In this document: one piece after another, positions 31,186-60,327 of the stretch
Numbering within the stretch: the first letter of the stretch is position 1
How the letters are laid out: each line of letters opens with the position of its first letter
Source: Octopus vulgaris
Taxonomy: Eukaryota
Reading direction: 5' to 3'
DNA: 64,000 bases
Assembly (NCBI GenBank): GCA_951406725.2
Contig: OX597828.1
Location: 22,568,001 to 22,632,000, forward strand
Made by a program: the position numbers and the translations under genes
The notes under the pieces: model-generated
Told to the model about the DNA's origin: nothing
The model's database searches: none
What the model saw: the letters and a program-made list of their open reading frames with translations, nothing else

Positions 31186-31345
31186 GTCTGTCTGTCTATC
31201 TAACTTAAAGACAGACGAAACACTCTTTCTTTAATACCCACGAGGGGCAAAGCACAAAGAAGACAAACAGGGACAGACAAACGGATTAAGTCGATTACAT
31301 CGACCCCAGTGCGTAACTGGTACTTATTTAATCGGCACCGAAAGG

Positions 31346-31505
31346 CTGCTACCAACCACTCCGTCTTTAGATCAGATGGCACCTTTGCTATCCTGACCCG
31401 GACGTGGCGCCCTCCCTTATACGTAGGTAACAGCACCAACTTTTCTGATCGCAGGACAGCTGCATAGTGTGAGGCCGCTTCTTCTTTTGTTGCAATCCTC
31501 ACCTC
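31346..31505 (-). pseudogene. Fragment of the CCHC ORF1-like protein family (middle part)
   Basis: VRIATKEEAASHYAAVLRSEKLVLLPTYKGGRHVRVRIAKVPSDLKTEWLVAA aligns by eye with LIFDTPGKACTVASQPLEGEEILLPPTYRGKVIRAWVCGLPPGTEAGWITDA of the 58-kb ORF. Confidence 0.75.
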
Positions 31506-31507
31506 CT

Positions 31508-32106
31508 AATTAGAGATTATTCTTTGTGGCTAATGGCGTGAGTCCTCATTGGAAGAAGAAGAAGAAGAAGAAAACAGTACGTTTGTCGGGAAAAATGTCG
31601 ACCGCAATGACTGAAATAATGTAACTAAATATCTTATTCTTCTCTCGGCACAATGCCAACCATTTAGAGAGATGGTGGTACTTGTCTTACCGATCCCGTA
31701 AGAATGATAGGCGAACACACTTCGGCAGAATTTGAACTCAGAATATAATGACAGACGAAATAACTATTTCTTTACCACCCACAAGGGGCTAAACACGGAG
31801 AGGACAAACAAGGACAGACAAATGGAATAAGTCGATTATATCGACCTCAGTGCGTAACTGGTACTTATTTAATCGACTCCGAAATGATGAAAAGCAAAGT
31901 CGACCTCGGCGGAATTTGAACTCAGAACGTAGCGGCAGACGAAATAACGCTAAGCATTTTGTCCGGCGTGCTAACAACTCTGCCAATTCTGACGCCTCAC
32001 GATGGAATTAAATATCGGAAGACATTTTTCCCGACAAACGTACTGTTTTCTTCTTCTTCTTCCAATCAGGACTCACGCCATTAGCCACAAAGAATAATCT
32101 CTAATT
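31508..32106. mobile_element. Element bounded by ~90-bp inverted repeats (MITE-like) containing a minus-strand SINE B (31722-31990)
   Basis: 31508-31599 vs 32021-32106 differ by one substitution and two GAA units; both ends terminate in AATT. Confidence 0.75.
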
Positions 32107-32199
32107 CGAGCCTACTCTAAGCAACTGAGAATGCGTGTGGAAACTTGAAGATCCACCCACCACACGCGATAGACTGGCGGTTGGACGGGTGCGAAAGCT

Positions 32200-32320
32200 A
32201 CGTTGTTATTCTCATTCCGTAAACGGCGGCCTTTAACGGGTGAAGAGCTGAACCATACTGGGGTACAGAGGATTCGCAATCTAGACTAGGGTCTGAAAAT
32301 TTACCACACCATAGTGGGTT
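32200..32320 (-). pseudogene. Possible decayed LINE reverse-transcriptase fragment
   Basis: GKFSDPSLDCESSVPQYGSALHPLKAAVY resembles the GVPQGSVLGPLLF motif of CR1/L2/Jockey RTs. Confidence 0.4.
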
Positions 32321-32344
32321 ACACCATGGTTCCTCTGCTTTGTG

Positions 32345-32527
32345 GCTGAAGTAGGAAGAAAGAGTGTGGTGAAAGAGTACAGCGGGGTTTATCCCCCTCT
32401 GCCGGAGACTCGTGGAGCTTAGGTGTTTTTGCTCAATAAACACTCACAATGCTCGGTCTGGGAATCGAAACCACGTTCTTACGACCGCGAGTCCGCTGCC
32501 CTAACCAGTGGGCCGTTGCACTTCCAC
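32345..32527 (-). mobile_element. SINE C, 5' half
   Basis: GGGAATCGAAACC...GCCCTAACCAGTGGGCC (reverse complement of the head). Confidence 0.85.
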
Positions 32528-32669
32528 ACGTACTGTTGTTTCGTGGAGAGGGCATACGTTTGTATATGAATATGTATTAATTTTATACTTTAACTCCTTT
32601 AGGCAATGAAATTTGGGGTCATGTTAGGGTATTGCAATCATAAAGATCACCGAAGATAGGCCAGATGAA

Positions 32670-33938
32670 AACAGAGCTTGGAAGAACAGACATGCTCAAT
32701 TGGTGGGGGAAGTGAAGTTGAGATGGGTACTAGTATCGTAGACTGGTCCCGGTTTACGCACACGCGCGTCCGCGCTAGCCAGACGTAGGCAGTCGATCCT
32801 ACGAGCTGACTGGCGCATGCACGATATATACTTGTATCGATATATACGATATATACTTGTATACGATATATACTTGTATATATACGATATATACTTGTAT
32901 CGCACGTCCCCGATTCGCGCGCGCGAATCGGGGACGTGCGATACAAGTATATATCGTATATATACAAGTATATATCGTGCATGCGCCAGTCAGCTCGTAG
33001 GATCGACTGCCTACGTCTGTTTAGCATGGACGCGCGTGTGCGCAAACCGGGACCAGTCTACGCTACTAGTACCGTTGAGATGTGGCTCTGCGCAACATTT
33101 AAAGATATAGAGAAGCTTCCCTATCTAATAGAGAAGCTTCCCTATCTAATGGGGGAAAATTTCCTGAATGTAATAGTAGAGGGTCGCAGACCCAATAGCT
33201 ACATCTGCGGTGAAAGGGGACATATGAAATTGAAGTGCCCGCAATATAAAAATAAACAGAACGAGCCGATACTGAATGAGAAAGAGGTGACAGAAGGAGA
33301 AATGGAGACGCAAAGAAGGATGAAGAGAGAAACAGAAAAGATAATAAATAATAACTGTAAGCAAGAAATGGGAGAGATAGAGAAAGAAACAAAAGCAACA
33401 AAAGAGGAGAGCGCTGGAGTCGTGAGCCCCAAGAAAAGGAAGAAGGCAAAATCTAGGGAAATGTTACAGAAAGCGACAGCAGAAGCAGAGAAGACGGACA
33501 TGAAGGATATAGAGCTACCTGAAACACAAGAAGTAGAGCAAAGACCAGGAGGTGCAAAGACCAGTGAGTTTTAAAATGAGCATAAAGGAGTCCTGATTTT
33601 TTACAAGAAATCAATAGAGGTGGAGAAGAAAATATCAAAGTGGAAAAATTTGGTGAGAGTAAAACTGCCTAAAGAGAGGAGGAAAAGTGTGTAAGTGTGA
33701 GTGAGTCAGCAAGCAAAGAACTGTGGAAACATTACAGAGAGTCCATGGCAGGATTGGATGGGCCAGTGTACAATAATGGTTGTGGACTTTACGAGACTGG
33801 AAAATTTCAAGAGAGAGGTAATAAATTTAGAATAAACATTTTAGGGGGAAAATGTGAACTATTTCTGTTAAGAAGAAAATTGTAAATTTTTTCGAGAATG
33901 TGTTCTGAAAAAAGAATGAGAAAAAAAAAGAGAAAAAA
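32670..33938 (+). mobile_element. Decayed ORF1-only retroposon (CCHC zinc knuckle), interrupted by a MITE
   Basis: VIVEGRRPN(S)YICGERGHMKLKCP at 33170-33240; acidic/basic linker; in-frame beyond the TAA: NEHKGVLIFYKKSIEVEKK; AATAAA at 33820 and 33831; A-rich end 33908-33938; 21-bp internal duplication at 33107-33148. Confidence 0.75.
32726..33073. mobile_element. Fully palindromic MITE with a 9-bp TSD (Mutator- or Merlin-like)
   Basis: TSD GTTGAGATG at 32717-32725 and 33074-33082; termini GGTACTAGTA/TACTAGTACC; symmetry axis 32920/32921 with no loop. Confidence 0.92.
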
Positions 33939-34845
33939 CTGTCTAAATGTAACGACTCGACTTCGTCGGACGAGTGGTCCGCCTCATTGTCTCATCTTTT
34001 TCATAATTCATTCGTCTCTCTTGGTTTTACTTCTTTTCTCAAATGCCTAGTTTTATTTTTAGTTCCCCGATTTTATGTTGTGTCTCGTCTGTACGTGTTG
34101 TATTTGTCTTAAGTATTTCGATGTACGCCTGTTAGTAGATAAAAAAAAAAAACAGACAGTTTTTCATACAGCACTGTGAAATCAGGATGAAGTCCATTGT
34201 CAAAATGGGGGAAGCCAGGTGTTAATAGCCAAACTGTGAAACTGTAACAATTTGGCTAAGACCTTGCCAAGCCTTTATAAGCAGAGATAATTGTTCACTC
34301 TGTTTTTTGTTTTTTTGCGACAGTTTCTCTGTGAGAGGCGGTTCAGTTGGATTCTAGAAACTGTGATTGCTTGCTTAGTTTATACAATTTGTGCTTTGAG
34401 TTAGGCAGTTATGGAATTATTTTATGCTCCAGGAATTCGCGAGAACTTTTTACTTGTCAGTTTTAAAATAATTTCTGTATCACATCTTATATTATAATAT
34501 TTATGTGAATTTCGATCCCTGCATATTTGACAGGTTGTGTAGTAATTTTGCTAGCTATTTTCTGTTAAGATAAATGTTGAAAAATTTATATAAATAGCTA
34601 GAGGGTGTATGAATTAATTTTTCATGTAGCCAAATTTTTGTATTAGACAACTGACTGTAAATTTTGTCTAATGGTTACTCGGCATGCTTGTATGACGCAG
34701 TTTTGTGTAAATTTAAAGCAAACTAGATTTTTTGAGGTTTGACTATTTAATTTTTTACTATAATTATTAATGTAGTCTGGCAGCAGTTTTGTGTCATAGA
34801 CTTCTAGTTTAAATGGTTGCTTTGAAATTAGATTTTTGTTTAGGT

Positions 34846-57388: not shown

Positions 57389-57432
57389 GTATATACACAC
57401 ATTTATACATAAATACACACACACACACACAT

Positions 57433-57727
57433 AGGGGGAAGGGTATCTTTTTTCTTCACAAATGTAAATAAACCCAATCTGTTTCTTAAAGGAGGGACAT
57501 ATTCATTATGCATAGAATGTTATTTACCTAAATGGACGTAAGCGATTGGTTAAAATTGCCGAAATGCTCGAAATTAAAGACGAAATATATTACAACATAT
57601 AGAATTTTTTCAATAAAGCCAAGAAAAAATGATGTTTTATAAACACATTCTACCAGTATACGAAGTTTAAAAGTGTTTAGTTAACTAGAAATTGTGTTGA
57701 AAAGTGCCGTTCAAAAGGAAAAGATCC
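57433..57727. mobile_element. Right half of the TTAGGG-containing MITE
   Basis: Co-linear with 46279-46568, ending GAAAAGATCC. Confidence 0.88.
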
Positions 57728-59364
57728 ATTGTTTATGTGTTGATAAATTTCGCCTCGCTCCGTGGCAATTCTACATGCTGTCGGGGGCTGCTGTTTTTTA
57801 TTTTTGTATTGGAAAAAAAAGGGGGCGTATCTTCGCCCGAACTTACTGGATTTTGCCATCGAAACTTGTTGAAGTTGGCCAGGAGTACCTGTTGGCCATT
57901 GATGTTTGCCGTGTAAACTGTTTTTCTTTTCTCTATCTTTCTGTTTTTTTTCTTTTCTTTGGAGCTGTTTTTGCGATTCTTTTGAATTTTATTTTTATTC
58001 ATATTTTTTTAACTGACTTGTTTATTTCTTTTTTGGACTTGTTAATTCTGTTGGACATTCCTTCTTCTTTTGAATTGACTTTTAACGTGGCAAATGCAAA
58101 AAGTGCCTTAGAATGGGAGGTGGTACCACCTAAGCAATGGATTGAAGGTCTTGAGAGAAGGACGGTGGTACTACGAACCTATTCTACGTCGCGTGACGCC
58201 ATCACCCTCTTCGACAAGGGTGTTATTAATAAGGAGCTAGCAAAATGTTTGCCAGCTAAAAATTATTATGTGACCAGAGGTGTCAAATACGCCACGGTGT
58301 GGCTAATTTTCGACACTCCTGGGAAGGCTTGCACTGTGGCAAGCCAGCCCCTGGAAGGGGAGGAGATTTTGCTTCCTCCCACATATCGTGGGAAGGTGAT
58401 AAGGGCCTGGGTATGTGGTCTTCCCCCGGGCACCGAAGCGGGGTGGATTACAGATGCCATCCGGCGGGGCCTGGGGAAAAGCAGGCCCAGACTTTTAAAT
58501 ACAGAGATAAAGCCTGCGGTCGACTGGGAGGGGGCAAAAGCAACTTTGACCCTATGGAGCCCAATGCCCGCGGGGGAAATGACTTTCCCTGACTTTTTAA
58601 AAATGGATGGCTCAGGGTGTCCAGTGATACTTGAGGGTCCCCCCCCCATGTGTCGCTCGTGCCTGGAGTCAGACCACATTAAGAAGGACTGCCCCCGGGG
58701 CCGTGGTAAGGTCCCGGAGCAGGGAAAGGTGAAGGTGTCCTCCGCTCTTCCATTGCAGGGAGAAACGGCGGAAGTCGTGGAGGCCGACGCCTCAACGAGA
58801 AGAAAAAGAAAGATGAGCAACAATGGTTGCTCACCAACAGACGCGCAGGTTGCGGGAGAGGAGGAGGACCCGCCTCTGGGTGTGCCGGTGGAGGCTCCGA
58901 CTCCCGCACACGTAAGAAGGAAAAAGAGAAGGAAGAGAAACGGGAGACAGTCGCTGTGCCGCCGACTGGACCGATGCTCCTCCGGTGGATGGTGTGCCAC
59001 CGGATGGTGTGCCACTCGTCGTCTTCTATCTCAAGGAAGGGCCTGTCGAGAAGTGCTTGGACTGTCTTCCAGGCCGAGAACGATTGGACTCGGTTTGTAT
59101 AGACTGTCCAGACTGGCCTCCGCAGGTGGCTGCGGACGTCGTGAATCAGAAGGAGCTGTTCGAGGTCATGGTGACCTGTAATAAGGAAGATTTTTGCTTT
59201 CCTCTTTCCGGGGCCCGACCAGCCGTTGCAGGCTTTCCTGCAGGCGGCGTGTCATTTGCTTGGGCGCTCCGATGAGGAGGATTGTCTGTGTATTGAATAA
59301 TATATTATATATATTTGTAATGGACTATTAAGTCCAATAATTGTCGTTTTTGATGGGAAAAAAA
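57728..59364 (+). mobile_element. Apparently full-length ORF1-only retroposon (HAL1-like)
   Basis: T-rich leader, GC-rich ORF1, short AT-rich 3' region ending in A7 at 59358-59364; no endonuclease or RT follows; no TSD found. Confidence 0.65.
58087..59275 (+). CDS. L1/Tx1-type ORF1 (gag-like) nucleic-acid-binding protein with a CCHC zinc knuckle; probable frameshift near 58900-58980
   Basis: CRSCLESDHIKKDC (Cx2Cx4Hx4C, 58651-58692) preceded by RAWVCGLPP and VILEG; likely start is the GTG at 58087; the C-terminal part is in the 58985-59275 frame. Confidence 0.7.
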
Positions 59365-59515
59365 GAACAATGTTTTAGAGAAGCAGAAAATCGGCGGGCG
59401 TTTTCTGCCTTCTCTCATCAATATCATCCTTGTTTCATCATTCACCTCATCAATGTATATGTCCAGCCCACAAACTGCTCTTTGTAATGCCCTTATAGCA
59501 AATCTTAATGAAATA

Positions 59516-59885
59516 AAGTAGCTTGTTTACCAACCACATGGTTCCGGGTTCAGTCTCACTGCGTGGCACCTTGGGCAAGTGTCTTCTACTATAGCCTCAG
59601 GCCGACCAAAGCCTTGTGAGTGGATTTGGTAGACGGAAACTGAAAGAAACCCGTCGTATATATGTATATGTATATATGTGTATGTGTGTCTGTGTGTCTG
59701 TGTTTGTCCCTCCAACATCGCTTGGTGTGTTTACGTCCCCGTAACGTAGCGGTTCGGCAAAAGAGTTCGATAGAATAAGTACTAGGCTTACAAAAAATAA
59801 GTCCTGCGGTCGATTTGCTCGACTAAATGCATTGCTCCAGCATGGCCGCAGTTAAATGACTGAAATAAATAAAAGAGTAAAAGAA
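59516..59885 (+). mobile_element. SINE A, slightly 5'-truncated
   Basis: Co-linear with other copies. Confidence 0.93.
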
Positions 59886-60093
59886 TATATACGCACACAC
59901 TGTTACACATACAAAACCATATTGACCTTCCCTTTTGCTGCTGTTGCTGTTGTTACTGATGTGTCCCAGAATTTCCACCTTCGGGCAGGCCAATGGTCAA
60001 AGACATTTCGACCGTATACCTTCTGACTTTTAGTTATCTAGAACTTAAATCTCCACATCTTTTTTAGTTAAGACGTTTTGGTGTATATTGCAT

Positions 60094-60327
60094 GCGGCGA
60101 GCTGGCAGAATCGTTAGCACGCCGGGTGAAATGCTCAGCGGTATTTCGTCTGCCGCTACGTTCTGAGTTCAAATTCTGCCGAGGTCGACTTTGCCTTGCA
60201 TCCTTTCGTGGTCGATTAAATAAGTACCAGTTACGCACTGGGGTCGATGTAATTGACTTAATCCGTTTGTCTGTCCTTGTTTGTCCTCTCTGTGTTTAGC
60301 CCCGTGTGGGTAGTAAAGAAATGGTAT
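60094..60327 (+). mobile_element. SINE B with a 14-bp TSD
   Basis: GTATATTGCATGCG at 60083-60096 and 60324-60337. Confidence 0.93.

Follow-up and report, generated by a model that had tools for sequence, protein, structure and literature searches.

The 64-kb stretch of Octopus vulgaris DNA analysed here (the window) carries at 57728-59517, on the forward strand, a decayed and broken copy of an element that is very common in octopus. In all probability it belongs to a family of roughly 2-kb retroposons that encode ORF1 alone, a protein in which two predicted RRMs and a CCHC knuckle precede a small C-terminal domain, that insert at one exact base of a SINE and that likely borrow the EN and RT of an L1/Tx1-group LINE using the same site.

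The window copy is of subfamily A and is colinear with relatives L002, L005, L007, L008 and L010 at 82-90% nucleotide identity. It has lost its 5' end and its ORF is broken. Alignment with six relatives identified 57728-58086 as the remaining T-rich 5' UTR, followed by an ORF1 remnant (58087-59282) which starts with GTG where five of the six aligned relatives have ATG. Compared with intact relative L002, whose ORF1 encodes 425 aa, the 3' half of the remnant has indels and frameshifts, and several indels move the C-terminal segment into another frame. Two tandem RRM domains are predicted at 58162-58640 from the AlphaFold model of L002 ORF1 and Foldseek. The CCHC zinc knuckle at 58652-58693 can be read in the sequence; its Pfam zf-CCHC match (E 0.1) is below the cutoff, while that of the autonomous ORF1 is above it. 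The C-terminal alpha/beta domain, out of frame here, is placed at 59000-59282 by the model of relative L032. The features by which the first-pass annotation had recognised the unit, namely the T-rich leader, the motifs LLPPTYRG, RAWVCGLPP and VILEG-CCHC, the charged linker and the GVPLVVFYLKEGPVEK segment, were all located in the sequence.

The boundaries proposed at first had to be moved. The unit was thought to end at an A7 run, but this run (59358-59364) is internal to a 3' UTR of about 235 nt (59283-59517) that is colinear in six relatives and includes a GCGGGC/GCCCRC stem, a terminal hairpin at 59488-59500 and a final AATAAA. In the alignment with relatives the copy ends with AATGAAATAAA at 59517, immediately before GTAGCT, which opens the body of a tRNA-type SINE. 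The copy therefore closes in AATAAA without poly(A), directly against the SINE, and the 3' copy of the target duplication together with the SINE body, the target, occupies 59518-59885 with the same junction as in relatives. Position 57728, taken earlier as the unit start, is a secondary edge where another repeat adjoins and about 180 nt of the unit as well as the SINE head are absent. Since the window copy is without a 5' junction, its own target duplication is unreadable there; in full-length relatives, the unit is immediately preceded by the head of this SINE and the duplicated stretch. In L011, too, the end of the repeat seen at 57431-57727 adjoins an ORF1-only unit whose 5' UTR is shortened, and the layout of these two loci is as expected from an insertion with an adjacent deletion.

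A protein search of the Octopus vulgaris genome (2.8 Gb) gave 9634 candidates, of which the best 150, with 57-100% identity, were scored. From 114 further scored matches we sampled 60 loci, taking the first 40 and then every second one. Of the 60, 57 had a junction at a single SINE base at one end or the other and 43 at both ends; unit length was 1711-2300 bp and the modal target duplication 13-15 bp. The 3' junction was at this base in 48 loci, with the SINE body next in 40 and another unit or a decayed body in 8; the 5' junction was there in 52, preceded by the SINE head in 47 and by the tail of a preceding unit in 5. In a search anchored in the 3' UTR, the best 40 of 1452 candidates were scored and 30 of those 40 loci examined: ORF1 was upstream in 27/30, the target junction was found in 27/30 and the SINE body came next in 24/30. 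As the window holds 11 SINE-body matches in 64 kb, a random insertion would be expected to hit one base about once in several thousand cases.

The SINE is the target and not part of the element, because a rare target variant was copied on both sides of the unit in L077, 5'-truncated copies (L178, L179 and L186) still lie within the SINE head with head and duplication kept, and off-target copy L168 has its own 16-bp duplication. With the SINE body after 40 and the SINE head before 47 of the 60 copies, the units could also be read as composites whose own termini are the SINE head and body and which are moved by the LINE partner of the SINE, without site targeting. This is very unlikely, given that the junction SINE sequence is duplicated with locus-specific variants, that truncated copies keep head and duplication and the off-target copy has no SINE, and that a single head and a single body can enclose alternating units of different families. 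The name tRNA-type is our presumption from A/B-box-like motifs; Rfam gave below-threshold microsatellite matches only and ARAGORN found no tRNA. In L203, L205 and L210 intact-looking SINE heads follow in close succession beside the LINE, as if SINEs had nested in one another at this site.

The absence of ORF2, already noted for the unit, was confirmed, with no ORF2 match anywhere in the 64-kb window (E<=1e-4). Nor do most copies continue into an APE-RT ORF2: an ORF2 of their own was found in 0/60 sampled loci and in 0/30 loci of the 3'-anchored set. A single RT fragment downstream among the 60 loci comes after a nested ORF1 of another kind and resembles more closely the RT of a second guild, described below. 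Since these figures come from the best 150 of 9634 and the best 40 of 1452 candidates, a rare ORF2-bearing close relative is possible. The comparison with HAL1 thus held for the ORF1-only state and failed for descent from L1. With Pfam at E<=1, no Transposase_22 was detected in the window ORF and five intact or autonomous ORF1s, which gave only zf-CCHC and one weak RRM_3. L1 elements carry a poly(A) tail. The octopus copies have the common 3' end and the target duplications that had been looked for, but the expected poly(A) is missing, and the units end in AATAAA on the target.

A candidate partner is a 5.45-kb two-ORF element found in the same arrays, whose ORF2 has APE, RT and zf-RVT domains and has L1 ORF2p as its best PDB match (E 6.5e-67). 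Among 20 loci selected for long open frames (14) or divergence (6), the same 3' junction was present in 17 and both ORFs were open in 3; in another set the target junction was found in 9/10 loci, four shared with the 20. The element exceeds the mark of >20% of flanks given for repeat targets in the accessible part of PMC4494074. Its RT is of the L1 group and is accompanied by a C-terminal zinc finger, as in Tx1 clade ORF2. We infer Tx1 rather than L1 from the ORF1 type and the targeting, the RT homologues returned, from Argonauta and fish, being unnamed or hypothetical proteins with no named Tx1 reference among them. The shared site, duplication and tail suggest that the ORF1-only units likely borrow the EN and RT of this complete same-site LINE. 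Their ORF1s are only about 23% identical to that of the sampled autonomous family, and the tails of subfamilies A-E differ from its tail beyond the last ~35 nt, so that a different LINE subfamily may be, or may once have been, the real partner.

Within 10-kb flanks, several ORF1-only subfamilies and the 5.45-kb element were mixed in head-to-tail arrays, every joint holding a single target copy. The insertion at one SINE base, the mixed arrays and the autonomous element inside them had escaped the first-pass annotation. Single-family arrays were also found, in which neighbours are 97-99.9% identical. This near-identity, and one array with at least 22 matches at ~1.78-kb spacing, are in favour of arrays growing mainly by unequal crossing-over or assembly duplication after retrotransposition of the first unit only. 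Such growth does not account well for mixed arrays, which join unrelated families including an autonomous LINE with one target copy per joint, and we consider it rather improbable as the main process. Near-identical neighbours within a single family could nevertheless come partly from duplication at the DNA level. A parallel guild (L131-L145, e.g. G000:C7:100.087-100.125 Mb) of ORF1-only families and at least two autonomous LINEs of its own likewise forms arrays at one site. Here the target is a different, AT-rich repeat, and the array of at least 22 matches just mentioned, on one contig, belongs to this guild.

The AlphaFold model of L002 ORF1 consists of two alpha/beta domains, the knuckle, a disordered linker and the C-terminal domain. 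With this model as query, Foldseek returned 13 tandem-RRM matches at E<=0.001, the best being the RRM pairs of HuR, hnRNP A1 and NONO (E 1e-4 to 1e-3). With its predicted RRM pair, its knuckle and its small C-terminal domain, the protein is predicted to bind RNA. The first-pass annotation had called the C-terminal domain unrecognised, and it is so in Pfam, where the C-terminal segments and the inverted piece of a second window copy (see below) gave no match. In the model of relative L032 the domain has a pLDDT of 80 and a small alpha/beta fold, with weak structural matches that reach no better than E 0.28 in Foldseek and Z 4.5 in VIA-align (rmsd 3.7, 69 aligned) and that speak neither for a novel fold nor for the lack of one. 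We take the top rows to be mostly ferredoxin-like folds, and a ferredoxin-like domain is our best guess. By eye, a segment with a similar predicted strand-helix pattern occurs in the C-terminus of autonomous ORF1s.

Selection on ORF1 was estimated by the Nei-Gojobori method for 7 intact copies (21 pairs), and many of the dS values are >1 and imprecise. The dN/dS of the core was 0.12-0.39 in 21/21 pairs (about 0.2 at dS about 1); that of the C-terminal domain was 0.16-1.19 in the 20 pairs with finite dS. The dN/dS check proposed earlier thus found a constrained core, which by these estimates is under purifying selection, and a C-terminal domain that evolves fast. Subfamilies D and B are far apart in the core (dS 1.36), whereas linker and C-terminus are near-identical (dS 0.09 and 0.17), and in L020 a B core is joined to a C-type end; together these indicate module exchange. 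L036 and L020 represent chimeric subfamilies, their C-terminal module having a history other than that of the RRM-CCHC core.

The window contains another ORF1-only element, whose 3' part of ORF1, own 3' UTR and A-rich end lie at 32634-34152 on the forward strand, interrupted by a MITE at 32726-33073, and whose N-terminal ORF1 piece lies inverted at 31344-31506 (reverse strand); the segments, 31344-31506, 32634-32725 and 33074-34152, correspond to a contiguous sequence in relatives L146 and L148. The motifs first reported for this copy were found in the sequence. Its end was set at 33938, short of the real end at about 34152, and both the inversion of its N-terminal part and its splitting by the palindromic MITE had escaped notice. 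The two window copies were also said to end at the same point. Their tails differ, however, and blastn found no similarity between them (best match 12 nt, E 0.71). The proteins are only 28-31% identical, and the C-terminal profiles match at 1% probability (E 0.046). By sequence, the two copies are assigned to separate clades with different tails. In the 20 loci nearest to the second copy there were 0/20 ORF2 matches within 1.5 kb downstream, and its own tail motif was present in 14/20, 0.77-0.94 kb past the match start.

The MITE, inside the ORF1 of the second copy, is palindromic; its terminal inverted repeats are long and its 9-bp target duplication is perfect, and from the length of this duplication we presume it to be Mutator-like. 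At the breakpoint of the inverted N-terminal piece (region 31344-32633) 2-3 nt overlap, an arrangement that twin priming would produce; since 31507-31600 is also an inverted copy of about 32020-32110, a later inversion is possible instead. Close kin of the second copy (L052-L054, L064 and L067) have other 3' flanks, three loci sharing one flank and two loci another, hinting at further targets.

Homologues of the ORF1-only proteins were named from Octopus sinensis, O. vulgaris, O. bimaculoides and Argonauta. In the ORF1 tree (32 rows, after 3 of 35 were dropped for lacking a CCHC match), the window copy falls in a 9-row clade (100/100) with an O. sinensis protein. The family of the second copy falls in another (99/96) with an O. 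bimaculoides protein and the ORF1-only families that build the long arrays at the AT-rich repeat. ORF1-only elements thus form three or more clades side by side. The stem of the A-E clade is long and fully supported, and no sampled autonomous ORF1 falls within this clade. The ORF1-only state arises by two changes on this tree, and one origin is still conceivable. Most copies, that of the window included, are broken, as they would be if the units were recent internal deletions of an autonomous LINE that drift neutrally with a dispensable ORF. This explanation has very little chance of being right, since it is opposed by the A-E stem, the core dN/dS and the position of the O. sinensis protein inside the A-E clade. 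The view of the units as an old, diversified ORF1-only lineage that keeps its RNA-binding protein was upheld in that they show purifying selection and no ORF2 of their own.

Octopus proteomes list some copies as host genes, as might be the case with processed pseudogenes of an intron-containing host CCHC gene. The probability of such an origin is close to nil: homology to the ORF1 of APE-RT LINEs extends across the entire core of the protein, and there are many subfamilies with one target base and no poly(A). The origin from a single host gene, which had been raised at the outset, thus found no support. Proteome entries P0001, P0003, P0011 and P0151-P0156, among them one called 'EPM2A-interacting 1-like', have matches to these ORF1s and probably represent elements annotated in error, and several annotated octopus 'genes' can now be flagged as such. 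A young subfamily was covered by contigs of four runs which are only guessed to be RNA, so that this coverage speaks for presence and not for transcription.

The tails of ORF1-only units and of the autonomous element have only the last ~35 nt in common, with the hairpin and AATAAA. In 15 sequences, 95% of the 60 cells of the hairpin are paired, with four cells showing double changes, in two pairs, and 1/500 shuffles as high; the hairpin has just 4 pairs, and a control slid by -3 reaches 83% paired. Further upstream, the ORF1-only tails have a conserved stem of 6 pairs. We found a 9-nt exact complement of the target in the autonomous tail (0/300 shuffles) and one of 7 nt in the largest ORF1-only cluster (12/300 shuffles); it was 5-6 nt only in the next four largest clusters, and the tails of the second guild gave no clear equivalent. 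A target-complementary motif, present in some but not all tails, would be a lead only.

From established LINE biology, the ORF2p of the partner would carry out target-primed reverse transcription, ORF1p would act in cis, and the duplication would regenerate the target site. A wider reading, speculative and in our judgement probably wrong in its full form, would be that octopus Tx1-like LINEs repeatedly spawned long-lived ORF1-only guilds, each tied to its own repeat target and competing for scarce ORF2p, that the fast-evolving, swappable C-terminal domain acts as an ORF2p-recruiting adaptor, and that the tail motif helps to open or prime the site. If true, it would imply a partly RNA-assisted targeting step in a LINE.

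Non-autonomous LINEs with ORF1 are described in the accessible parts of PMC5786205 and PMC5753468 as HeT-A (Jockey), HAL1 (L1) and Ag-Sponge (CR1). Like these, the octopus units encode ORF1p alone, keep a LINE-type 3' end and probably need an autonomous partner; their ORF1 is homologous to LINE ORF1 and kept coding, and the last ~35 nt of the 3' end are common with the autonomous LINE. HeT-A likewise occurs in head-to-tail mixed arrays with its partners. The octopus units differ in that their likely partner, with an RRM-CCHC ORF1, is from the L1/Tx1 group, that three or more ORF1-only clades exist together, that poly(A) is lacking, and that insertion is at one base in a dispersed SINE instead of telomeres or random sites. 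Tx1 is absent from the three clades (Jockey, L1 and CR1) listed in the accessible text of PMC5786205, so a fourth LINE group would join the short list with ORF1-only passengers, here combined with single-base SINE targeting and self-renewing mixed arrays.

Target-specific LINEs of the Tx1 clade include Tx1 in Tx1D, Keno in U2 and Tx1-Mar, with SINEU-3, in Mariner-N4_AMi (PMC4494074, accessible part). Like them, the octopus LINE is APE-type and prefers another repeat, non-autonomous passengers use the same target, and tandem insertions sandwich one duplication. In contrast, the octopus passengers are protein-coding ORF1-only units and not SINEs, and a tRNA-type SINE is not among the targets named in that part of the article. 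A predicted RRM pair followed by a CCHC knuckle is also the arrangement of Type I ORF1p in the available text of PMC5203782, to which the octopus protein adds a disordered basic linker and then a C-terminal alpha/beta domain that has no Pfam match. An annotation of octopus repeats from 2026 lists 80 L1-Tx1 families, and its accessible part was not found to mention targeting or ORF1-only forms (PMC13282606). Our literature search, with Repbase, Dfam and subscription papers outside its range, found no description of a SINE-targeting ORF1-only system. Why a non-autonomous LINE keeps ORF1, and how ORF2p is captured in trans, are long-standing questions that the young, near-identical copies and intact two-ORF partners make directly testable.

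A second common SINE lies at 60093-60325 of the window. By eye, its tail and those of similar copies resemble the 3' tail of these LINEs, and it may be another passenger.
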